From Planctomycetota bacterium (GTDB lineage: Bacteria > Planctomycetota > Phycisphaerae > Phycisphaerales > Phycisphaeraceae): DNA of 16,000 nucleotides. The translations under genes and the position numbers were made by a program. This document shows positions 1,683 through 15,251 of the stretch, piece after piece. The number at the start of each line of letters is the position of its first letter. Position 1 is the first letter of the stretch. The stretch is from positions 30,762 to 46,761 of the forward strand of contig JBCDKD010000007.1 in assembly GCA_039024275.1 (NCBI GenBank), given 5' to 3'. Below the pieces are notes generated by a model, which did not search any database, had not been told where the DNA came from, and saw only the letters and a list, made by a program, of their open reading frames with translations.

Positions 1683-1940
1683 TGGTCGCTTCTTTGATGT
1701 GAGACTGCGCGCGCCTCCGCGGCGGTCGGTCAGGGCTCCGCCCCGACACCCCAAAGGCAAAGTAAGCACTGTTTAGCGGGCGACGCGAAGCGTCCCGTGC
1801 AGATCCTGTCAGATATTTCGAACGGGATGCTTTGCATCCTTAGTGCTTCGTCATGGGTCCATTGTCCCTGCGCTACCGTTAGACTGTTCCTCTTATTTTT
1901 CTCAACGGTCTGTACGGCCCTCAACGCTAGGAGCGGATAC

Positions 1941-3122
1941 ATGGAACGGCAACGCATCGGCATCATTATGAACGGCGTCACCGGCCGGATGGGCACGAAC
2001 CAGCACCTGATCCGCTCGATCGCGGCGATCATCAAGCAGGGCGGTGTGCGCGTCGGCACGGACAAGGTGCTGATGCCCGAGCCGATCCTCACCGGCCGAA
2101 ACGAGAACAAGCTAAGGGCCCTGGCCGAAGCGCAGGGCGTCGCCGCGCAGGGCAAGCCGTTTGCCTACACCACCGATCTGCCCGGTGCCGTGTCGGGCAA
2201 GCACGGCGACTACGACATCTTCTTCGACGCGTCGGGCACGCTGCAGCGCGCCGGCTTCCTCGAGATGGCGTGCCAGTCGGACATGATCAAAGGCGTCTAC
2301 TGCGAGAAGCCGACGGCGACCAAGGCCGACGAAGCGCTCCGCCTCGCGCAGATGGTCCAGCAAGCCGGCAAGAAGAACGGCGTCGTTCAGGACAAGCTCT
2401 GGCTCGCCAGCTTCCGCAAGATCGCCATGCTCAAGGACCTCGGGTTCTTCGGCGACATCCTCAGCGTCCGCGGCGAGTTCGGCTACTGGGTCTTCACCGG
2501 GATGGACCTGGACCAGCCCGCGCAACGCCCGAGTTGGAACTACCGCGAAGAGGATGGCGGCGGGATCATGATCGATATGTTCTGCCACTGGGACTACGTC
2601 ATCCGCAACCTCTTCGGCCCAATTAAATCGCTCGTCGCCTACGGCAACACGGACATCGCTGAGCGCCGCGGCGAAGCCGGCAAGCCCTACAAGGCGACCG
2701 CGGATGACTCGGCCTACGCCATCTTCAAACTCGAAGACGGCACCGTCTGCCAGTTCAACTCGTCCTGGTGCACACGCGTCCGACGCGACGACCTGCTCAC
2801 CGTCCAGGTCGACGGCACGAAGGGCTCGGCGGTCGCCGGGCTGCGCGAGGTCTACACCCAGGCCGCCGCGAACACCCCCAAGCCCGTCTGGAACCCGGAC
2901 ATCCCCCAGCCGATCGACTTCTTCGGCGGCTGGGAGAAGGTCCCCGACAACATCGCGTACGACAACGCGTTCAAGATCCAGTGGGAGCTGTTCCTCCGAC
3001 ACGTCGCGCTGGACGAGCCGTTTGAGTACGACCTGTTCGCCGGGGCCCGGGGCGTGCAGTTGGCCGAGTTGGGGATGCAGAGCTGGAAAGAGAAGCGCTG
3101 GGTGGAGGTTGAGGGGTTGTAG
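1941..3122 (+). CDS. Gfo/Idh/MocA family NAD(P)-dependent sugar oxidoreductase
   Basis: ORF 1797..3122 trimmed to ATG 1941, which is preceded by AGGAG (1929..1933, 7-nt spacer). It has an N-terminal Rossmann strand-loop IGIIMNGVTGRMG, the family EKP motif (YCEKPTA), and a C-terminal alpha/beta oligomerisation region. Length is 393 aa. The antisense 296-aa ORF 2112..3002 is a shadow. Confidence 0.85.
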   Translation: MERQRIGIIMNGVTGRMGTNQHLIRSIAAIIKQGGVRVGTDKVLMPEPILTGRNENKLRALAEAQGVAAQGKPFAYTTDLPGAVSGKHGDYDIFFDASGTLQRAGFLEMACQSDMIKGVYCEKPTATKADEALRLAQMVQQAGKKNGVVQDKLWLASFRKIAMLKDLGFFGDILSVRGEFGYWVFTGMDLDQPAQRPSWNYREEDGGGIMIDMFCHWDYVIRNLFGPIKSLVAYGNTDIAERRGEAGKPYKATADDSAYAIFKLEDGTVCQFNSSWCTRVRRDDLLTVQVDGTKGSAVAGLREVYTQAAANTPKPVWNPDIPQPIDFFGGWEKVPDNIAYDNAFKIQWELFLRHVALDEPFEYDLFAGARGVQLAELGMQSWKEKRWVEVEGL

Positions 3123-3154: not shown

Positions 3155-3239
3155 ATCCGGACCTTCGCTGTGCTCAGGACCGGCTTCTCTGAGGTGTATC
3201 TACTAGGAAGCCGGTCCTGAGCGCAGCGAAGGTCCGGAT
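3155..3239. repeat. REP-like inverted doublet (REPIN-like), left: two 33-nt units in inverted orientation around a 19-nt spacer
   Basis: Unit 3155..3187 is ATCCGGACCTTCGCTGTGCTCAGGACCGGCTTC. Unit 3207..3239 is GAAGCCGGTCCTGAGCGCAGCGAAGGTCCGGAT. They are reverse complements with 1 mismatch that is G:U compatible. Each unit also folds on itself (CCGGNCC ... GGNCCGG). The doublet starts 33 nt after the Gfo/Idh/MocA stop, so it could also act as a terminator or mRNA-stabilising hairpin. Confidence 0.9.
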
Positions 3240-3262
3240 GGTTTGTCCATTAAACTGATGTG

Positions 3263-3862
3263 ATGTCTTTCGAGAATTACTGCTGGTGGCACCTCATCCT
3301 CACCTGCCGCGGCCAGTGGCTCCCGGGCGACCCGCGCGGCTTCCGTTCTCGTGAGCACCGCGTCCACAGCAGCGGCGACTACAAAAGCCGTCCACCGCAA
3401 GGCGAACACGCCGGGCTGCACGCGTATCAGCAGGTTCGAAGCAACGAACCGGTCGAAGTCCCGCAAGAGAGCAGGCCGGTTCTTGGTGAAGCGATTATTA
3501 ACAAGTGTGTCGCGACCGAAGCGCCTTGTTTGGTGATCGCTACGGGTCGGGCGCACACGCATTTATTGGCTGCCATGTTCAACGACTGGCAGCATGTCAA
3601 GAAGCAGGTTGGGCGATTGAAGCAGGCCGGCTCGCACGCGATCCGCGAGGCGTTGCCGGGTCGCGTGTGGGGGGATGGGGGAAAGCCGATCCGTGTAACA
3701 GATCAAGCGCATCAGAAAAACGTATTTCGATATATCTCGGAACACGCGCAACAAGAGGGGGCCTGGGTTTGGCGGTATGACGGTGAGGGTTCGGCGATCG
3801 ATCCGGGCCTTCGCTGCGCTCAGGCCCGGCTTCTGGAGAAGTTCTTGCAATCAAAATCGTGA
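3263..3862 (+). CDS. HUH/Y1 single-strand DNA transposase-like protein, REP-associated tyrosine transposase (RAYT / IS200-like Y1_Tnp superfamily)
   Basis: 199 aa from ATG 3263 (the track starts one GTG codon earlier, at 3260). N-terminal strand is WWHLILTCRGQWLPGDPRGF. The HUH motif is AHTHLL (H98-T99-H100, nt 3554..3562). This is followed by VGRLKQAGSHAIRE...VWGDGG..IRVTD and the catalytic-Tyr block VFRYISEHAQ (Y157, nt 3731..3733). That order matches the IS200/RAYT layout: HUH, then xGxxKxxxSxxxR, then LWxxxY/F, then YIxxN/H. The last roughly 20 codons are read-through into the right REP doublet (GLRCAQARLLEK...). Confidence 0.7.
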   Translation: MSFENYCWWHLILTCRGQWLPGDPRGFRSREHRVHSSGDYKSRPPQGEHAGLHAYQQVRSNEPVEVPQESRPVLGEAIINKCVATEAPCLVIATGRAHTHLLAAMFNDWQHVKKQVGRLKQAGSHAIREALPGRVWGDGGKPIRVTDQAHQKNVFRYISEHAQQEGAWVWRYDGEGSAIDPGLRCAQARLLEKFLQSKS

Positions 3863-3893
3863 AGCCGGTCCTGAGCGCAGCGAAGGCCCGGAT
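3801..3893. repeat. REP-like inverted doublet (REPIN-like), right: two 33-nt units of the same family around a 27-nt spacer
   Basis: Unit 3801..3833 is ATCCGGGCCTTCGCTGCGCTCAGGCCCGGCTTC. Unit 3861..3893 is GAAGCCGGTCCTGAGCGCAGCGAAGGCCCGGAT. They are reverse complements with 1 mismatch. They belong to the same family as 3155..3239, differing only at unit positions 7, 16 and 25. In unit 3801..3833, positions 7 and 25 are G and C, which makes the intra-unit 7-bp stem perfect (CCGGGCC/GGCCCGG). Confidence 0.9.
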
Positions 3894-3912
3894 CAAACAA
3901 TATTAAACAACC

Positions 3913-4749
3913 ATGCCCACAACCGACCTATCCAACTGCGCAATCCACACGATGACCAACAAGCCCTGGTCGCTAGCCGAGTGCTGCGAGCACTACGCCG
4001 CGGCGGGCATTGGCGGCATCAGCATCTGGCGCAAAGCCGTCGCGCCCGGAGAGGGCGGCGTCGGGCTTGATGAAGCCGTGAAGATCGTCGAGGGCTCGGG
4101 CCTGGCGGTACCGGCTTACGTGCGCGGCGGGTTTTTCCCCGCGGTCGATCAAGCTGACCGTCAGTCGGCGGTCGACCACAACAAAGTCATGATCGATGAG
4201 GCGGCTGCGCTCGGTGCGGACCAGGTTGTGCTGGTGGTCGGTGCCGTACCGGGGATGCCGCTCGCTGACGCGAGGCAGCACGTCGCGGACGGGATCGCGG
4301 CGTGTGTTGAGCACGCCAAGCAGGCCGGGGTGAAGCTCGCGATCGAGCCGCTGCACCCGATGTACGCCGCGGACAAGAGCTGCATCAACCGCATGGCCGA
4401 GGCGCGGGCGATCTGCGAAGCGATCGGTAGCCCTTGGCTTGGCATCGCGGTGGACGTGTACCACGTCTGGTGGGACCCGGACCTGGCCGAAGAAATCGCG
4501 TTGGCCGGTAAGCTCGGGCTGTTGTTCGGCTTCCACGTCTGCGACTGGCGCGTCGACACCCGGCACCTGCTCACCGACCGCGGCCTGATGGGCGACGGCT
4601 GCATCGACATCCGCGGCATCCGCGCCATGGTCGAGTCCGCAGGCTTCGATGGCTTCAATGAAGTCGAGGTTTTCTCGGAGCAGTACTGGTCGATGAACCA
4701 GCAAGACTATCTCGCGATGATCACCGACCGCTACCGCGAGCACTGCTAA
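3913..4749 (+). CDS. Sugar phosphate isomerase/epimerase, xylose-isomerase-like TIM barrel (AP_endonuc_2, PF01261)
   Basis: 278-aa ORF with ATG at 3913. The layout is typical of the family, with metal-ligand-type blocks KLAIEPLHP (Glu), [12 protein letters not shown] (Asp/His) and FNEVEVFSE (Glu). The antisense 256-aa ORF 3973..4743 is a shadow. Confidence 0.8.
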
Positions 4750-5732
4750 CCGAGCAACGCCTCGAACCTCGGCACCAGCTCGGCCAGCACCTCACGATCA
4801 CTCTCCGGCCGTTTTGTGCTCTGCGGGTGCGTGTCGTCGCAGCCGATCCAGCCGCGGAGCTTCATGAACATCGCCGCGTTGTGCTTGTACGCCGGCACGG
4901 GCCCACGGAAGGCAAAAAAGCCGAGGTACTGCAGCAGGTCGTTGACCTCGTAGAACCCAGCGTCGCCGTCCGCCCAGAGCCGGTCGCGCTTGGCGAAGAG
5001 GTCGGGCGCGAAGGTCGAGAGCCCGAGCAGGTAGTCGCTGCCGTACATGATCATGTCGATGGCCAGGTCGTTGCCGGTGAAGACGTGGAAGCCCGGGCGC
5101 ACCCTGTCGCGCAGTTCAAGCCGGTCCCACTCGAGCCGGCGTGACAGGGAGGAGTGCTTCGCGCCGATGCACTTGGGCAGCTTCATGAGCGATTCATAAG
5201 CGTCCAGCGAGTAGATCTGACCGAAGGGCGCGAACATGCCGCCGAGTTCGAACGCGATGAACCGGTCCGCGTCTTTGGCGAGCTGCGCGTAGGCCGGCGC
5301 GAGGAGCATGTCGTCCAGCTTGGTCAGGCCGAAGGACTGGAAGACGACCGGTTCGCCCTGGTGCTGCAGGACTTCTGCGATGGCGGTTTGGTAGGCGCCC
5401 GGGTTGAAGGTGTCGTCGGGGGTGTCGAAGACGCCTGCCCCCGCGACGAAACGCGCCCCGGCACAAGTATCGCGCGTCCGCCGCAGCGCCTCGACCCGCG
5501 TGGCATCGTCCAGCAGCGGCGCGTAGCCCGTGTCCATGTTGACCGCGGGGACCAGCCCCGCCTCGACCGTGCGCGCGACGTGGGCCTCGAAGCCGGGCCA
5601 GTCGATCGATCCGTCGGCGTTGAACGGGAGCAGCACCGCGGACATACCCAGCGGCTTGCGATTGGGTTGGATCGGTCGGATCGGCATCCGCGAGAGTGTA
5701 ATGGCAGCCGACTTATTCGCGCTGCCCGCCAT
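4746..5732 (-). CDS. Dihydrodipicolinate synthase / N-acetylneuraminate lyase family (class I aldolase-like) protein
   Basis: 328-aa ORF. The ATG at complement 5730..5732 is preceded by GGAGGGGG (complement 5740..5747, 7-nt spacer). This supports the long start over internal Met codons at 5687 and 5645. DHDPS-like blocks include [39 protein letters not shown] and RFVAGAGV. A candidate Schiff-base lysine sits in [10 protein letters not shown]. The canonical GTTGE motif is replaced by NMDTGY, so it is unlikely to be true DapA. Confidence 0.65.
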
Positions 5733-8208: not shown

Positions 8209-8231
8209 TGGGTTGATTGGAACTTGAAATA

Positions 8232-8297
8232 GCACCGCATATGAGTGCGGTGCCCGAGCCGTGTCATACTTTCGGGCACCGGATTCACATCCGGTGC
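8232..8297 (+). repeat. Two similar 22-nt hairpins (8-bp stems, 6-nt loops) between the lipoprotein gene and the symporter gene
   Basis: Hairpin 1 is 8232..8253, GCACCGCA-TATGAG-TGCGGTGC. Hairpin 2 is 8276..8297, GCACCGGA-TTCACA-TCCGGTGC. Both stems are perfect and share GCACCG...CGGTGC. The first begins 24 nt after the lipoprotein stop and the second ends 13 nt before the symporter ATG. Neither is followed by a T-run. Confidence 0.6.
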
Positions 8298-8310
8298 TGC
8301 TGACAGAGCC

Positions 8311-9864
8311 ATGCCCAACCTGTTCGACAGCCAACTCGCCCTGCTGGACTGGCTGATCCTCGCGGGCTACTTCGTGCTGATCATCACGATCGGTGCGCTG
8401 GCCAGCCGGGGCAAGAACGATGAGCAGGGCTTTTTCCTAGGTGGCCGACGCATGCCCGCGTGGGCGGTGGCGATGTCGTTCGCGGCGACCACGCTGAGCG
8501 CCGCGACGTTCATCGGCGGGCCCGCCGAGTCGTTCAAGACCGACCTGACGCTCCTGTCCTTTGAAATCGCCAAGGTGCTGGGCGCATTGCTGGTCGCGGC
8601 GCTCTTCCTTCCCCCCTTGTTCCGCTCCGGCTGCACCACCGTGTACGGCTACCTGGGCCGGCGCGTCGGCCCGGGCGCGATGCAGGCGGCCAGCGCGATG
8701 TTCCTCTTCGGCCGGCTCCTTGCTTCGGGGGCCCGGCTCTTTATCGCAGGCACCGCCTTCTCGCTCATCTTGTACGGCAACCTCGAAACCGCCAACCTCG
8801 TGCTAGCTATCGTGCTCTTCGGCGTCGTCGGCACGCTGTACACCACGCTCGGCGGGATCAAGGCCGTCATCTGGACCGACACCCTCCAACTGCTCGTGGT
8901 CGTCGGCGCGGTCGTCGTGGCGATGCTCCTGCTCCTGCACGCGATCCCACTGCCCATGAGTGAGATCGTTCACGTGCTGCAACAGGAGCAGAAAACCAGG
9001 CTGCTCGACACCTCGTCCGACCTCTCTAAGGCGACCACGCTCTGGGCGGGCTTGGCGATGACCTTCTTTTTCGCCGCCGCGTTCGGCGCCGACCAGGACA
9101 TGGCTCAACGCCTGCTGACCTGCAAGAGCCTTAAGCAGTCGGTCGGCGCGCTCCTGGGCGCGACGCTGATCGCCCTGCCGATCACGGTGATGTTCATGGC
9201 GACGGGCCTGCTGCTGTACATCTTCTACACGCAGCCCGGCCTGATGGGCGCTGCGGCGCCTGCCGACGCGGTGACCGATCACCGCCAGGCGTACCCACGG
9301 TTCCTATTGAACGAGCTGCCGATCGGCATCAGGGGTGTGGCGATCGCGGGCCTGTTCGCCGCGGCGATGAGTAGCCTCGACTCGGCGATGAACGCGATGG
9401 CGTCCAGCGCGGTGTCCGACCTGATCAACCCGGCCCGCCGGGCACTGAGCAGGTCTGAGGAGAGTGACGAACTCGCGCCGCTCTGGTCCCGCCTGGCCGT
9501 CGTCCTGATGGGGGCACTGCTGACCGCCGCGGCGCTGGTCATGGCGCTGATCTACGACCCCGAGGCCGACACCCTGATCCGCTTCGCGCTGGGCGTGATG
9601 ACCTTTGCCTACGCCGGGCTGATGGGCGTGTTCTTGTGTGTGCTTCTGACCGGGCGCGGCAGCACGGCGAGCGTCATCGCCGCGCTGATCACAGGCATGG
9701 CGGTGATCGCTGCCTCGCGGTACGTGCCGTTGATCAAGAGCTGGCCGATCGCCTGGCCCTACTGGATGGTGATCGGCACGGCGGCGAGCCTCGGGGTCTG
9801 CCTGATCGGTGCGGTGCGCCGTGATCACCCGCCGTATACGAACCGCTCTGCGACGCGTCTATGA
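8311..9864 (+). CDS. Sodium:solute symporter family (SSF/SSS, PF00474) transporter
   Basis: ORF 8245..9864 trimmed to ATG 8311 (MPNLFDSQLALLDWLILAGYFVLIITIGALASRG...). The SSS N-terminal signature is FFLGGRRMPAWAVAMSFAATTLSAATFIGGPAESF. There are roughly 13 hydrophobic segments, and GGIKAVIWTDTLQ and SSLDSAMNA blocks are typical of the family. Substrate is not inferable. Confidence 0.85.
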   Translation: MPNLFDSQLALLDWLILAGYFVLIITIGALASRGKNDEQGFFLGGRRMPAWAVAMSFAATTLSAATFIGGPAESFKTDLTLLSFEIAKVLGALLVAALFLPPLFRSGCTTVYGYLGRRVGPGAMQAASAMFLFGRLLASGARLFIAGTAFSLILYGNLETANLVLAIVLFGVVGTLYTTLGGIKAVIWTDTLQLLVVVGAVVVAMLLLLHAIPLPMSEIVHVLQQEQKTRLLDTSSDLSKATTLWAGLAMTFFFAAAFGADQDMAQRLLTCKSLKQSVGALLGATLIALPITVMFMATGLLLYIFYTQPGLMGAAAPADAVTDHRQAYPRFLLNELPIGIRGVAIAGLFAAAMSSLDSAMNAMASSAVSDLINPARRALSRSEESDELAPLWSRLAVVLMGALLTAAALVMALIYDPEADTLIRFALGVMTFAYAGLMGVFLCVLLTGRGSTASVIAALITGMAVIAASRYVPLIKSWPIAWPYWMVIGTAASLGVCLIGAVRRDHPPYTNRSATRL

Positions 9865-11126: not shown

Positions 11127-14100
11127 ATGCCCCGCGACCTTGCCCAATCCGCCGAGCTTATCAGCCAAGCGATGGTTGGCGATCGGCACCGCCTCCGCCG
11201 AAGGCTCCGCGCGATCGAGCAGGCTGCGGAGAACGGCAAGCCCTTCGGTCGAAGCCTCGGCAAGCTTCAAAACGCGTTGGACGAGTCGATCGCCCTACGC
11301 AAGCAACGCAGGGCCAACGCGCCGGCGGCGAGTCTGCCGGATGAGCTGCCGATCACCGCGCGTGCAGACGAGATCATGGACGCGGTCCGCGGTCACCAAG
11401 TGGTCGTCGTTGCGGGCGAGACCGGGTCGGGCAAGTCGACGCAGCTGCCCAAGCTGATGCTGCGGATGGGCCGTGGCGTCGATGGGCTGATCGGGCACAC
11501 CCAGCCCCGCCGGCTCGCAGCACGCTCGGTCGCGCAGCGCGTGGCCGACGAGTTGGGCTCGCCGCTCGGCCAGCACGTGGGCTACAAGGTCCGTTTCACG
11601 GACAAGACGAACCCGAAGACCTACATCAAGCTGATGACCGATGGTGTGTTGCTGGCCGAGGCGGCGCGCGACCGGTTCTTCGACAACTACGACACGCTGA
11701 TCATCGACGAGGCGCACGAGCGGTCGCTCAACATCGATTTCCTGCTCGGCCACCTCAGCCAGATCCTGCCCAAGCGCCCCGACCTGCGCGTGATCATCAC
11801 CTCGGCGACGATCGACACCCAGCGTTTTGCGGAGCACTTCGGCACCGCGACCCGTGACGGGCTCGAGCCTGCGCCGGTGATCGAGGTCTCCGGGCGGACC
11901 TACCCCGTCGAGGTGCGCTACCAGCCGATCGAGCCGGACGAGCACGGCGAGGCCGGCGACACCGCCGAGGCCGTGGCCCACGCGATCGGGGGGCTCGGTC
12001 GTCAAGGCGATGTGCTCGTCTTCATGCCGACGGAGCGCGACATCCGCGCGTGCTGCGGCCTGCTCGAGCGCCGCCAGCCCGGCAGCGAGGTCCTCCCGCT
12101 GTACGCCCGGCTCACCAACGCGCAGCAGCAGGCGATCTTCGCCAAGAGCAGCAAGCGCAAGATCGTCGTTGCGACAAACGTGGCCGAGTCATCGCTGACC
12201 GTGCCGGGCATCCGCTACGTCGTGGACACGGGCACGGCGCGGGTGGCCCGGTACTCGCCGAACTCGAAGGTGCAGCGGCTCCCGGTCGAGGCGGTCAGCC
12301 GGGCCAGCTGCGACCAGCGCAAGGGCCGGTGCGGCCGCGTCGGCCCGGGCTTATGCGTGCGGCTCTACTCGGAAGAGGACTTCCTGTCGCGGGACGAGTT
12401 CACGACGCCGGAGATCCTGCGTAGCAACCTGGCGAGCGTGATCCTGCAGATCGAGACGCTGCGGTTTGGTGCGATCCAAGACTTCCCGTTTATCGACCCG
12501 CCCCGGCCGAGCATGATGCGCGATGGGTATAAGACGCTTCACGAGATCGGCGCGTTGACAGCGGATGACTCGGTCAGCGCGCTGGGCAGGCGGCTCTCGC
12601 GCATGCCGGTCGACCCGCGTGTCGCGCGGATGGTCTTGGCAGGCAAGGACGAAGGCGTGTTACAGGAGGTGCTGGTCATCGCCTCGGCGCTGGAGGTGCA
12701 GGACCCGCGTGAGAGGCCGATCGATCAGCAGGGCAAGGCCGACGCCGCGCACGAGCCGTTCGCAGACCCCCGCAGCGACTTCCTGGCGTACCTCAACCTC
12801 TGGTCCTTCTACCACAGACAGAAAGACAAGCTCTCGCACAACAAGCTGAGGAAGGCCTGCAAGCAGAACTATCTTAGTTACGTAAGGATGCGCGAGTGGG
12901 TGGATGTGCATCAGCAGTTGAAGAGGATGGTGCAGGAATTGAAAGTGGGGCAGACATTCCTGTCTGCCTCAGGCCGTAGGCCTGAACACAAGAAGGGTTC
13001 GGCTGCGCCGAACGGCAGACAGGAATGTCTGCCCCACGCTGCTGAGATCACGGACAGTAAAGCCGACGCGATCCACCGCGCGCTCCTGACCGGGCTGCTC
13101 TCCAACATCGCGAACAAGGGCGACGGCTTCGAATACACTGGGGCCGGCGGTCAGAAGCTGCACCTCTGGCCCGGCTCGTCGCTGTTCGCAAGCAAGCCCA
13201 AGTGGGTCGTTGCCGCAGAGCTGGTCGAGACGACCCGGCGGTATGCCCGCACGGCCGGGCGGATCCAGCCCGGCGTGATCGAGCCGATCGCGGGGCACCT
13301 GGTCAAGAAGACGCACAGCGACCCGCGCTGGGTGCGCGAGACTGGCTCGGCGATGTGCAGCGAGAAGGTCTCGCTCTACGGGCTCGTGCTCGTGCACGCC
13401 AGGCCGGTCCCCCTCGCGCGGGTCAACCCTACCGAGGCGAGGCAGATGTTCATCCAACGCGCGCTGGTCGAGGGCGACTGGGACTGCGACCTGCCGTTCT
13501 ACAAACACAACCAGGCGTTGTTGGAACAAGCCAAGGCGACCGAGGCCAAAGCACGCCGGCACGGGCTGGTCGCATCGGATCAGGTGCGCTACGCCTTCTA
13601 CGACGAACGCCTCCCCGAGACGGTCACCGACAGCGCGGCTTTCAAGAAGTGGTACAAGAAAGCCCACCCCTCTCCCCCCGGGGGAGGGGCCGGGGGTGAG
13701 GGGCGAGGCTCGGTCGAGACAGCGGATCGAAGAAAATCGGATCCTTCCGATTCGCCCCTCACCCCAGCCCTCTCCCGTGGGGAGAGGGGGCAAGACCCAT
13801 CAGAACCGCTGTACATGGACCTGCCGATGCTGCTCGCAGAGTCGGCGGAGGATGTCACCGAGCAGGCGTACCCCGACCGCTTGCGCGTCGAGCAGTCGGA
13901 CCACGCCCTCGCCTACACCTTCGACCCCGGCGACGAGCGCGACGGTTTAACCCTGACGCTGCCGCGCGAAGCGCTTGGCCAACTCGATGCGCGGCGGCTG
14001 GGCTGGCTGGTGCCCGGCATGCTCGAGCAGAAGCTGGTCGCGATGATCAAGTCGCTGCCGAAGCCGTTGCGCAAAACCCTGAGCCCGGCACCGGACGCGG

Positions 14101-15251
14101 CGAGGCGGGCGGTGCAAGCGATGCGCTTCGGTGACGGCCCGTTCGAAGACGCCGCCGCCCAAGCGCTCAGCAAGATCGGCGGGCTGAACCTCTCCGTATC
14201 GGATTTTGACTTAAGCGTTTTGCCCGATGCGTTCCGGATGAATGTCCGGGTGCTTGGCAAGCAGGGCCAGACGCTGGCGGAAGGGCGCGACATCAACAAG
14301 GTCCGTCGCAAGCTCGGCGCCGGGGCGCTGCCGAGCTACGCGGGGATGGACGATCCGCGCTGGGGCGCATCACCAACAACCCGCTGGTCCTTCGGCGAGT
14401 TGCCCAAGCACGTCGATACGACACGCAGCGGGGTTGAGCTCCGCGCGTACCCCGCGCTGATCGATGAGGCCGCGGGCGTCGCGCTGCGCCTGGTCGACAC
14501 GCGCGCCAAAGCCCGCCGGCTCACACGCGCGGGCCTGCGTCGGTTGTACTCGTTCGAGGTGCAGCGCGACTTCGCCTGGCGGGCCGACCGCTGGCAGGAC
14601 ATCGACAAGGCCCGGTTGTGGTTTGCACCGATCGGCGACCCGACGAATCTTAAGGATCAACTCGTGCTGCTGATGACCGATCGCGCGTTCCTGTTTGATA
14701 AAGAGGAAATCACGGGCGAGCAGGCGTTCATCACACGGCAGCGCATCGGGCTGCAGCGGCTCGACCTCGCCGAGCGGGAAGTGCAGCGCGTCGTCGGACC
14801 GGTACTGCAGTCGGCCCAGCGTGCAAGGCTTGCAGTGGAGCGTGCCGATTTCCGACAGGCACCGCACCTCAAAGCCGATGTGCGCATCCAGTTAGACAAT
14901 CTGTTGTCGCCGTCGTTTTTCGTTGAAACGCCGTGGACCCGCCTGGCGTCCTACCCCCGCTATTTGGCGGCGGTCGAGCGTCGACTCGACAAGCTGCATC
15001 GTGGCGATGCGTCGCAGGATGTGGCTGCTTTTAAAGTGATCGCGGAGCATTGGAACCGGTATGCAACAACAGCCAGCGCACTACGCGAGCAAGGCGGGGT
15101 CGACCCCGAGTTGGAGCAGTACCGGTGGCTGATCGAAGAGTTCCGCGTGTCGCTGTTTGCCCAGGAGCTGGGCACGAGCGAGAAGGTCTCGCCCCAGCGG
15201 CTCGATCGGCAGTGGGAGAAGGTCACGGGCAAGCCGCTCGGCGGCGGATGA
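11127..15251 (+). CDS. hrpA: ATP-dependent RNA helicase HrpA (DEAH/RHA family) carrying two in-frame palindromic-element insertions
   Basis: 1374-aa ORF. Helicase motifs: GETGSGKSTQLPK (Walker A), IIDEAHERS (DEAH), TSATID, ATNVAESSLTVPG and QRKGRCGRV (motif VI). An HA2/OB region follows (ILRSNLASVILQ; ELVETTRRY). The long HrpA-specific C-terminal region includes KSLPKPLRK and ends with RWLIEEFRVSLFAQELGT. It is co-linear with E. coli HrpA (1300 aa) from the N-terminal coiled region to the end. Confidence 0.95.
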   Translation: MPRDLAQSAELISQAMVGDRHRLRRRLRAIEQAAENGKPFGRSLGKLQNALDESIALRKQRRANAPAASLPDELPITARADEIMDAVRGHQVVVVAGETGSGKSTQLPKLMLRMGRGVDGLIGHTQPRRLAARSVAQRVADELGSPLGQHVGYKVRFTDKTNPKTYIKLMTDGVLLAEAARDRFFDNYDTLIIDEAHERSLNIDFLLGHLSQILPKRPDLRVIITSATIDTQRFAEHFGTATRDGLEPAPVIEVSGRTYPVEVRYQPIEPDEHGEAGDTAEAVAHAIGGLGRQGDVLVFMPTERDIRACCGLLERRQPGSEVLPLYARLTNAQQQAIFAKSSKRKIVVATNVAESSLTVPGIRYVVDTGTARVARYSPNSKVQRLPVEAVSRASCDQRKGRCGRVGPGLCVRLYSEEDFLSRDEFTTPEILRSNLASVILQIETLRFGAIQDFPFIDPPRPSMMRDGYKTLHEIGALTADDSVSALGRRLSRMPVDPRVARMVLAGKDEGVLQEVLVIASALEVQDPRERPIDQQGKADAAHEPFADPRSDFLAYLNLWSFYHRQKDKLSHNKLRKACKQNYLSYVRMREWVDVHQQLKRMVQELKVGQTFLSASGRRPEHKKGSAAPNGRQECLPHAAEITDSKADAIHRALLTGLLSNIANKGDGFEYTGAGGQKLHLWPGSSLFASKPKWVVAAELVETTRRYARTAGRIQPGVIEPIAGHLVKKTHSDPRWVRETGSAMCSEKVSLYGLVLVHARPVPLARVNPTEARQMFIQRALVEGDWDCDLPFYKHNQALLEQAKATEAKARRHGLVASDQVRYAFYDERLPETVTDSAAFKKWYKKAHPSPPGGGAGGEGRGSVETADRRKSDPSDSPLTPALSRGERGQDPSEPLYMDLPMLLAESAEDVTEQAYPDRLRVEQSDHALAYTFDPGDERDGLTLTLPREALGQLDARRLGWLVPGMLEQKLVAMIKSLPKPLRKTLSPAPDAARRAVQAMRFGDGPFEDAAAQALSKIGGLNLSVSDFDLSVLPDAFRMNVRVLGKQGQTLAEGRDINKVRRKLGAGALPSYAGMDDPRWGASPTTRWSFGELPKHVDTTRSGVELRAYPALIDEAAGVALRLVDTRAKARRLTRAGLRRLYSFEVQRDFAWRADRWQDIDKARLWFAPIGDPTNLKDQLVLLMTDRAFLFDKEEITGEQAFITRQRIGLQRLDLAEREVQRVVGPVLQSAQRARLAVERADFRQAPHLKADVRIQLDNLLSPSFFVETPWTRLASYPRYLAAVERRLDKLHRGDASQDVAAFKVIAEHWNRYATTASALREQGGVDPELEQYRWLIEEFRVSLFAQELGTSEKVSPQRLDRQWEKVTGKPLGGG
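12945..13037. repeat. 93-nt palindromic element (perfect 24-bp terminal inverted repeats with nested inner palindromes) inside hrpA, in frame
   Basis: 12945..12968 is GTGGGGCAGACATTCCTGTCTGCC. 13014..13037 is GGCAGACAGGAATGTCTGCCCCAC, its exact reverse complement. The 45-nt centre contains AGGCCGTAGGCCT and GTTCGGCTGCGCCGAAC sub-palindromes. The element starts exactly at hrpA codon 607 and spans 31 codons (VGQTFLSASGRRPEHKKGSAAPNGRQECLPH). Confidence 0.9.
13667..13789. repeat. Nested G/C-rich palindromic element of about 123 nt inside hrpA, in frame
   Basis: The left half 13667..13706 (CCCCTCTCCCCCCGGGGGAGGGGCCGGGGGTGAGGGGCGA) is an imperfect inverted copy of the right half 13752..13789 (TCGCCCCTCACCCCAGCCCTCTCCCGTGGGGAGAGGGG). 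Local hairpins are CCCTCTCCC-GTG-GGGAGAGGG (13768..13788, perfect) and CCCCTCTCCCC-CCG-GGGGAGGGG. Arms 13688..13706 and 13752..13769 pair with each other. The centre contains ATCGGA-TCCT-TCCGAT. Translation is low-complexity: HPSPPGGGAGGEGRGSVETADRRKSDPSDSPLTPALSRGERG. Boundaries are good to about +/-5 nt. Confidence 0.8.

Follow-up and report, generated by a model that had tools for sequence, protein, structure and literature searches.

A 16,000-nucleotide stretch of a Planctomycetota genome (contig JBCDKD010000007.1, positions 30,762 to 46,761; called the window here) carries a small transposase-like gene between two inverted doublets of a 33-nt palindromic repeat. The architecture of this locus is that of a REPtron, in which the gene for a tyrosine transposase associated with repetitive extragenic palindromic (REP) sequences, or RAYT, stands among such repeats. 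The likely explanation, with good confidence, is that the gene is a resident, vertically inherited RAYT-like gene of the HUH-Y1 type, and that the doublets on each side of it are its cognate REPs.

The locus and its repeats

The 33-nt unit (consensus ATCCGGNCCTTCGCTNNGCTCAGGNCCGGCTT) occurs four times in the window. All four copies bracket one open reading frame (ORF) of 199 aa, and none lie elsewhere in the 16 kb. A scan of the window with the core pattern CCGGNCCTTCGCTGNGCTCAGGNCCGG matches at 3157-3183(+), 3211-3237(-), 3803-3829(+) and 3865-3891(-), while 0 of 200 shuffled sequences matched. With U for the unit and U' for its inverse, the layout is U-U'-gene-U-U'. A repeat finder likewise returns the inverted repeats 3155-3187/3207-3239 and 3800-3833/3861-3894. 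Their arms measure 33-34 nt and are 97% complementary; 19 nt separate them on the left and 27 nt on the right. Between the four copies there are differences at 1-3 positions; the unit starts with (G)ATCCGG and ends with CCGGCTT.

From the stop of the upstream Gfo/Idh/MocA gene (3122) to the start of the downstream TIM-barrel gene (3913) is a distance of 790 bp, of which the repeats and the gene take up 739 bp. The last ~25 residues of the ORF are a translation of REP copy 3 and the doublet spacer. A preliminary description of this DNA, made from the letters alone, had claimed four copies in two inverted doublets, a 199-aa frame between them with the motifs AHTHLL and VFRYISEH, a spacer nearly filled by this unit, a C-terminus made of translated REP and a host from the group around Planctomycetota, Verrucomicrobia and Chlamydiae (PVC). 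These claims all stand: the repeats and both motifs are at their places, and the genome is that of a planctomycete.

The same description took the flanking units for the cognate REPs of the gene. This is borne out by the repeat's dispersed, extragenic copies in sister genomes, and by its divergence in step with the protein.

Dispersal was scanned with a degenerate core in one genome per species. This gave at least 120 loci, many of them concentrated in a handful of Phycisphaeraceae and Planctomycetota genomes; the counts per genome are lower bounds. The type found in the window (GATCCGG...CCGGCTT) is present at at least 7 loci in metagenome-assembled genome (MAG) JANQFR01, at least 7 in MAG JBCCOP01, at least 4 in MAG JBMCXL01 and at least 3 in MAG JBGSTE01. 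Two complete Phycisphaeraceae chromosomes, OY763327 (at least 10 loci) and OY771506 (at least 6), carry a variant (ACCCGG...CCGGCGT). Copies inside one genome show 0-2 differences in the 27-nt core. Of the dispersed copies, 55 of 61 lie between predicted genes or at gene edges, where genes were predicted with an ORF filter calibrated on the G+C content of third codon positions (GC3).

Among the matches listed, a homolog of the gene is encoded at just one of the 120 REP-bearing loci. This is locus L027 of JANQFR01, which has the same four-repeat arrangement as the window. It is therefore the short repeat that is multi-copy, and not the gene.

Dispersed doublets are found in JANQFR01, JBCCOP01, JBMCXL01 and JBGSTE01. 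All of those among the matches listed have the orientation -+ (U' followed by U, so that the GATCCGG heads face each other), with gaps of 18-34 nt between the cores. The doublets adjoining the gene are oriented +-, with their tails facing. The inner pair U'...gene...U, on the other hand, is itself a head-to-head doublet with the gene as its spacer. Judged by where its copies lie, the 33-nt repeat is a genuine REP family, dispersed in sister Phycisphaeraceae genomes and often arranged in doublets like those called REPINs.

Repeat and protein also change together. Locus L125 of JBCCOP01 encodes a homolog with 55% identity and carries, in four copies, a variant whose stem is fully paired (GGACC...GGTCC); a repeat unit there starts inside the stop codon (TGATCCGG). 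The homolog of the cultured Algisphaera agarilytica (50% identity) sits at an unrelated locus among four copies of a different palindrome of 41-47 nt, in which the ends GATCCGG and CGGCTT and the centre TCGCTTCGCTC are retained. The U-U'-gene-U-U' layout itself recurs in L027, L125 and L127.

For the wider family, 89 loci from metagenomes and genomes yielded 63 distinct ones that have flanks of 200 nt or more to both sides. A bracketing inverted repeat of at least 16 nt is present at 52 of these 63 (83%), against about 5% expected at the E-value cutoff. This statistic was used alone, since an automated doublet detector undercounts, missing the known doublets of L027. The family's repeats are diverse, with a recurrent format of (G)AT, a GC-rich hairpin and C(T/G)T. 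As in the window, the 3' end of the ORF contains the downstream repeat in roughly a quarter of the family loci. Comparison of these flanking sequences shows that Planctomycetota homologs are bracketed by their own, differing palindromes that share the (G)AT-hairpin-C(T/G)T format.

A separate observation concerns chromosome OY763327.1 (L126:4786-4817, 5576-5653). Besides the REP variant, an AT-rich repeat unrelated to the REP, GAGATTGCTAATCTCTAATTGCTGATCGTTAA, brackets the RAYT homolog there.

Table 1. Features of the locus, in window coordinates.
Feature	Position	Strand	Remarks
REP copy 1 (U), outer left	3155..3187	+	ATCCGGACCTTCGCTGTGCTCAGGACCGGCTTC
REP copy 2 (U'), inner left	3207..3239	-	tail-to-tail left doublet with copy 1 (3155-3239)
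RAYT-like HUH-Y1 gene	3263..3862	+	199 aa and stop (ATG 3263, stop 3860-3862)
N-terminal module, residues 19-52	3317..3418	+	WLPGDPRGFRSRxHRxHSSGDYxxxPPxGEHxGL
HUH motif codons (H98-T99-H100)	3554..3562	+	on predicted strand 98-106
Putative catalytic Tyr157 codon	3731..3733	+	in predicted helix 148-159; H161 at Y+4
REP copy 3 (U), inner right	3801..3833	+	within 3' end of ORF; encodes ..DPGLRCAQARLL..
REP copy 4 (U'), outer right	3861..3893	-	starts at stop codon; right doublet with copy 3 (3801-3893)
Gfo/Idh/MocA oxidoreductase gene	1797..3122	+	upstream neighbour, left side of conserved junction
Xylose-isomerase-like TIM-barrel (AP_endonuc_2) gene	3913..4749	+	downstream neighbour, right side of conserved junction

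The enzyme

The protein is identical to NCBI AAGI37_03185 from a Planctomycetota MAG, which is annotated as a hypothetical protein. A word-indexed search finds 271 relatives, nearly all of them planctomycete where a source is named. Some of these, a minority, are annotated with PF01797 or with the COG-derived name 'REP element-mobilizing transposase RayT'. When 27 homologs (41-74% identity) are aligned, H98, H100, Y157 and 19 other columns are invariant. The window protein has every one of these residues, and its ORF is uninterrupted. The Pfam family Y1_Tnp (PF01797) is matched by 15 of the 27 at E <= 0.01, with a best E of 4e-7.

A single-sequence search of the PDB with the 199-aa protein gave no match. 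A profile of the family weakly matches the TnpA proteins of IS608 and ISDra2 there (E about 0.7), with the HUH strand as the aligned part. The AlphaFold model, made from the alignment of homologs, reaches a predicted local distance difference test (pLDDT) of 87 and a predicted template modelling score (pTM) of 0.81. When this model is compared to the PDB with Foldseek, the best match is 4ER8, the E. coli RAYT with its REP hairpin, with probability 1.00. The next matches are the TnpA proteins of ISDra2, IS608 and IS200, also all with probability 1.00.

Because of the Pfam matches within its family, the invariant HUH and tyrosine residues and the best fold match to 4ER8, the protein as modelled is an HUH-Y1 enzyme of the IS200/RAYT superfamily. 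The earlier identification of the ORF as a RAYT-like HUH/Y1 enzyme is upheld by the same three lines of evidence.

Y157 lies 59 residues past H98, a spacing found in 141 of 216 family members and inside the range of about 58-67 residues that HUH-Y1 enzymes have. The motifs of the family are [T/M]H[A/V]H and Y-x3-H/Q, and the window protein has AHTH, WG and YISEHAQ. Four residues past the tyrosine, 138 of the 216 have H and 38 have Q. The most conserved part of the protein is an N-terminal module whose invariant residues include H32, H35, D39 and H49, and which AlphaFold models with low confidence. Typical family members measure 170-185 aa; the window protein reaches 199 aa because of its REP-encoded tail.

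In an exhaustive search with the family profile, 1,248 clusters (50% identity) score E <= 1e-3, and 582 reach E <= 1e-10. Most family members fall under the annotation threshold.

How such a system might work can be sketched from E. coli TnpA-REP and IS608 TnpA (PMC3333891, PMC3479197, PMC8266576). By analogy, the enzyme would act on single-stranded DNA, such as that at a replication fork, and bind the REP hairpin folded in it. It would then cleave beside the hairpin through a 5'-phosphotyrosine on Y157, with a metal held by H98, H100 and probably H161. Rejoining of the strands would cut out REPs, single or in doublets, and re-insert them throughout the chromosome; the gene itself would not move.

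The dispersed REPINs could then be the gene-less form of the inner U'...gene...U unit. This idea comes from geometry alone, as the inner pair shares its head-to-head orientation with the dispersed doublets. Guide or cleavage positions may lie in the conserved (G)AT and C(T/G)T flanks, and the conserved loop is a candidate recognition determinant. The C-terminal tail would be a by-product of reading through a REP that is free of stops, and not a selected domain.

History of the locus and competing explanations

The same junction between the Gfo and TIM-barrel genes is occupied by a RAYT gene in four other genomes. In L121 (JBCCYY01, 71% identity to the window protein), L123/L124 (JBKAGS01, 69%) and L027 (62%), the gene has the same orientation as in the window. 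In L125 (52-55%) it is inverted relative to both neighbours.

The preliminary description had proposed looking for an empty site at this junction in related genomes. One is found in the outgroup L035 (OY771506), which lacks the gene and has about 25 nt from stop to start. The neighbouring genes of this outgroup are more distant, with identities to the window of 71% for Gfo and 64% for TIM.

Over the whole gene, the ratio of nonsynonymous to synonymous divergence (dN/dS) is 0.10-0.24, next to 0.17-0.25 for TIM and 0.08-0.37 for Gfo. In codons 1-172 the proportion of nonsynonymous differences (pN) is 0.15-0.27, versus 0.61-0.82 for synonymous ones (pS). In the tail encoded by the REP, pN and pS are about the same, which fits a constraint on the DNA of the repeat rather than on the peptide.

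Given the shared junction in four other genomes and the empty outgroup site, the sequences indicate that the gene was inserted once, before these species diverged, and has been inherited since. The preliminary description had suggested an insertion into an operon. The empty outgroup site agrees with that. The insertion is not a recent one, given that four species-level genomes share the junction and that the gene is under purifying selection.

The repeats around the gene are less stable. All four units are kept in the window, L027 and L125. L121 and L123 lack the outer right unit, and there the RAYT stop overlaps the TIM start (ATGA). Aligned with L121:6560-6600 and L123:6560-6600, the window (3860-3912) has 50 nt more, made up of REP copy 4 and 18 nt. 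By this alignment, the outer right REP is a case of gain or loss of a single unit between close relatives. In L123 the left doublet is eroding while the gene remains intact.

In L125 (L125:4901-5604, JBCCOP010000037.1) the whole RAYT cassette is inverted, and its protein is more divergent (52-55%) than its neighbours would predict. This suggests either an inversion between the flanking inverted repeats or a replacement by another allele.

Either strand of each doublet, folded by itself, gives one long hairpin (-44 to -49 kcal/mol; z from -12 to -14). The left one (3155-3239) makes a 33-bp hairpin of -46.5 kcal/mol. The geometry of a REPIN is present in the window: two inverted REPs, a short spacer and one long hairpin (z about -13). 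A search of Rfam returned only sub-threshold microRNA-precursor models, which amount to generic long hairpins and were rejected.

Such hairpins may affect the expression of the operon. The earlier suggestion that they may act as terminators is not supported, however. A scan of the window found no T-run after the doublets and no terminator or promoter at them. In addition, transcription must read through in L121 and L123, because the RAYT stop overlaps the TIM start in both.

An alternative is that the doublets are mainly structural or regulatory parts of the operon, like an mRNA stabiliser, an attenuator or a protein-binding site, and that the enzyme is a host factor that binds or processes REPs and has ceased to mobilise anything. 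The 33-bp hairpins are very stable on either strand. Moreover, the locus is co-oriented with its neighbours, translationally coupled to the TIM gene in L121 and L123, and long retained under purifying selection. Such roles for REPs, and a host benefit of RAYTs, have been proposed (PMC6006769, PMC5581495).

The doublets carry no T-run or promoter signal, however, and the left one decays in L123 next to an intact gene. The outer right REP comes and goes between close relatives, and the near-identical dispersed copies (0-2 mismatches in 27 nt) suggest ongoing copying. As the principal explanation, regulation is therefore unlikely. It is also compatible with the REPtron reading and does not exclude it.

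Less probable still is an active, autonomous insertion sequence (IS) of the IS200/IS605 type that recently transposed into the sugar operon, with the hairpins as its ends. The HUH-Y1 fold, the subterminal palindromes at both ends, the empty site in one relative and a GC3 under that of the neighbours would all suit it, as would the occurrence of the family at other loci in more distant genomes and the inverted cassette in L125. What decides against it is that copies at the same junction in four genomes are 52-71% identical with a dN/dS of 0.10-0.24; on this synteny and selection a recent IS insertion was rejected. Also, the ends are inverted doublets of one unit, unlike those of IS200/IS605. 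And it is the short repeat that multiplies and not the gene, whose single occurrence at 120 REP-bearing loci, among the matches listed, is the orthologous one in L027.

The idea that the locus is an inactive relic, in which gene and repeats persist after the REP population died out or never expanded, has the absence of further copies in the 16-kb window, the 1-3 differences between the four copies and the eroding repeats of L123 in its favour, but is just as improbable: all invariant family residues are intact in an uninterrupted ORF, 16 kb is too small a sample when sister REP-bearing loci mostly have 1-2 copies per 8 kb, and the closest sampled relatives do carry dispersed copies.

Several observations weigh against the REPtron reading itself. 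On its own, the window protein scores 13.6 bits (E = 0.073) against PF01797, under the cutoff of 23, and searches of NCBIfam and PHROG with it gave no match. The Pfam search that the preliminary description had proposed thus falls short for this protein and succeeds for 15 of its 27 homologs. The tyrosine motif is YxxxH/Q, where canonical RAYTs have YxxxN(P). The 33-nt unit in the window has no GTAG or GTGG tag, so that the GT[AG]G foot of known REPs is absent. The nuclease and ligase activity of all family members is predicted by analogy. Within the 16 kb of the host genome, the only copies of the repeat are the four at the gene.

The composition of the gene is also off. Its GC3 is 0.69, versus 0.85-0.88 in the adjacent genes, and between species its synonymous divergence is higher than that of the neighbours. 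Weak codon adaptation could account for both findings, and so could an occasional replacement of the allele or horizontal exchange.

Nor is the family strictly one gene per genome, since at least one genome, that of L121, has two paralogs. Vertical inheritance and low gene copy, as known from RAYTs, are seen across the four syntenic genomes with this one deviation. In this genome, the closest relative sampled, the second paralog lies at L121:1-158 (JBCCYY010000030.1), upstream of the syntenic copy by ~6 kb. It is 56% identical over the N-terminal 46 residues that are visible at the edge of the locus.

The small hairpin within each unit is a further weak point. It has an 8-bp stem (CCGGNCCT/AGGNCCGG) and an 11-nt loop, with a central mismatch in three of the four window copies. 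The folding energy of single units is -6.1 to -10.4 kcal/mol, with z from -1.0 to -1.7, which does not surpass that of shuffles. Of the earlier claim that each unit forms its own hairpin, the stem remains, with these dimensions, mismatches and unremarkable folding.

The preliminary description also saw selection on structure in a compensatory G/C pair in copy 3. That pair is real. Across 80 copies from related genomes, the commonest state of the stem centre is nevertheless an A.A mismatch (43/80), and the pair was dropped as proof of structure. Watson-Crick pairs make up 30% of these 80, versus 18% expected if both sides were independent. With A.A the commonest state, this means that selection on the small stem is weakly supported in this lineage. 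Among 71 matches to the core from outside Planctomycetota, 43 have a Watson-Crick pair at the stem centre, and C/G, T/A, G/C and A/T all occur. Because of these paired cores, the small hairpin itself is probably real.

Known relatives and wider reach

The best known REPtron is that of E. coli, where TnpA-REP, a RAYT also called YafM, is flanked by REPs in bacterial interspersed mosaic elements (BIMEs) (Ton-Hoang 2012, PMC3333891; structure 4ER8, PMC3479197). Like there, a single HUH-Y1 gene has inverted short palindromic repeats on both sides, the repeat is dispersed and extragenic (here in sister genomes), its inverted doublets resemble BIMEs and REPINs, and 4ER8 is the best structural match of the AlphaFold model. 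Unlike there, the host is a planctomycete, sequence identity is ~11%, the ends of the REP are (G)AT...C(T/G)T without the 5' GTAG tag of E. coli, and the protein has an extra, highly conserved N-terminal module of ~35 residues. Going by its sequence, the protein is not a canonical class 2 RAYT.

The nearest published kinds are the class 3 TnpAY1 proteins and the TIRYTs. Class 3 (Quentin et al. 2018, PMC6006769) consists of 24 proteins, mainly from Planctomycetes with GC-rich genomes. Their median length is 178 aa, and they have extended N-terminal conservation, atypical flanking hairpins and marginal detection by PF01797. Their motifs are NHVH, W[TA] and YV[VI][AENY]EQ, and their REPs have a CnGA foot.

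The family of the window protein fits class 3 in length, N-terminal conservation, host and flanking hairpins. Read on the opposite strand, class 3 REPs also have a similar format (A/T-CCG..hairpin..CGG-CTCG). By contrast, NHVH is found in 3 of 216 family members, and the class 3 tyrosine motif also in 3 of 216. The published class 3 REPs flank none of the 89 family loci; there are only three loose matches, none of them beside a family gene. Compared by published motifs and REP sequences alone, then, the family does not match class 3 well.

TIRYT genes, which form TIRtrons (Di Nocera et al. 2013, PMC3733652), are tyrosine-transposase genes with inverted repeats (TIRs) that lack GTAG. These TIRs are moderately abundant, form dimers, are sometimes self-complementary and sometimes extend over the 3' end of the gene. 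The planctomycete Rhodopirellula baltica has many tyrosine-transposase genes with flanking repeats (PMC3733652). The window resembles this type in its non-GTAG inverted repeats flanking the gene, its dimers and its 3'-end overlap. It differs in that the shared TIR motif GGGGWSAS is not found in the window repeats. PMC3733652 does not cover Phycisphaerae and does not describe the 33-nt unit or the four-unit layout.

The preliminary description had set the planctomycete-like host apart from the better-known Proteobacteria. The setting does have precedents, since planctomycete RAYT-like genes with repeats already appear in PMC3733652 and PMC6006769. Full-text literature searches found nothing specific on Planctomycetota REPs beyond these two.

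The REPINs of Pseudomonas and the group 2 and 3 RAYTs (Bertels & Rainey; PMC5581495, PMC8049555) are another parallel. They too have dispersed inverted REP doublets that form long hairpins, and a vertically inherited, syntenic gene under purifying selection, with several paralogs possible. Protein class, REP sequence and phylum are different, and here the gene is in an operon with its 3' end running through a REP. IS200/IS605 elements, finally, have distinct, directly oriented hairpins at their ends instead of inverted doublets of one unit; they also come as several near-identical copies of the entire element, often with a tnpB gene. In the window there is no tnpB beside the gene, and the gene occurs once.

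It is conceivable, although doubtful for now, that the gene stands for a large and essentially unannotated clade of HUH-Y1 enzymes with REPs, centred on Planctomycetota, that differs from canonical RAYTs and perhaps also from class 3. The candidate clade would comprise at least 1,248 clusters (50% identity), the majority of which have no Pfam call. If it is real, its marks would be the N-terminal H32/H35/D39/H49 module, Y-x3-H/Q, and non-GTAG REPs of the (G)AT-hairpin-C(T/G)T format.

The hairpin core GGNCCT-TCGCT(T/G)CGCTC-AGGN'CC recurs in Acidobacteriota, Bacteroidota, Proteobacteria and candidate phyla, with compensatory changes in the stem. This hints at a possible pan-bacterial REP superfamily, recognised through its loop.

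The occurrences outside Planctomycetota often number many copies per genome and lie inside other repeats. Their loop is TTC/TGC/TCC in 39 of 71, against ~5% by chance. Loci with the core come from Thermoanaerobaculia/Acidobacteriota (L017, L019, L021, L045, L059, L076, L077, L090-L096, L104, L110, L113, L115, L119, L120), Niastella (L054, L056, L057) and Alphaproteobacteria (L008, L009, L070), with L058 and L108 in addition.

The window also holds other palindromes. At 12945-13037 there is a perfect 24-nt inverted doublet, in which 45 nt separate GTGGGGCAGACATTCCTGTCTGCC from its reverse complement. The repeat is a canonical REP tagged with GT[AG]G, of a type that matches the Solibacter subclass 2.7 REP (Quentin 2018 Table S1, PMC6006769). 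It lies in frame within a 1,374-aa HrpA-type helicase ORF (11127-15251), between HA2 and OB, and adds ..VGQTFLSASGRRPEHKKGSAAPNGRQECLPH.. to the protein. A second, unrelated G/C-rich inverted doublet (CCCTCTCCCCCCGGGGGAGGGG.. / ..CCCTCTCCCGTGGGGAGAGGGG) at 13668-13790 is in frame in the DUF3418 region of the same hrpA ORF and encodes ..HPSPPGGGAGGEGRG...SPLTPALSRGERG... Together with the 33-nt unit, the hrpA doublets therefore give the window at least three families of palindromic repeats. Two adjacent short hairpins (AGCACCGCATATGAGTGCGGTGCCCGA / TCGGGCACCGGATTCACATCCGGTGCT) at 8231-8298 stand at the start of a sodium:solute symporter ORF (8245-9864).

To our knowledge, nearly all work on REP/RAYT systems has dealt with Proteobacteria. 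The spread of REPs, and the reasons for which hosts retain the enzyme, are standing questions on which this locus bears. It does not overturn the current understanding. What it adds is a REPtron architecture that is conserved in Phycisphaerae, with a branch of enzymes that escapes standard profiles and goes by the annotation 'hypothetical'. This also explains the recurrent 'DPxLRxAQxRLL'-type peptide tails and the palindromic intergenic repeats in annotations of planctomycete MAGs. Finally, one single junction offers a natural series that is empty, four-REP, three-REP with translational coupling, or inverted, and that can be used to study how REPs are gained, lost and inverted.

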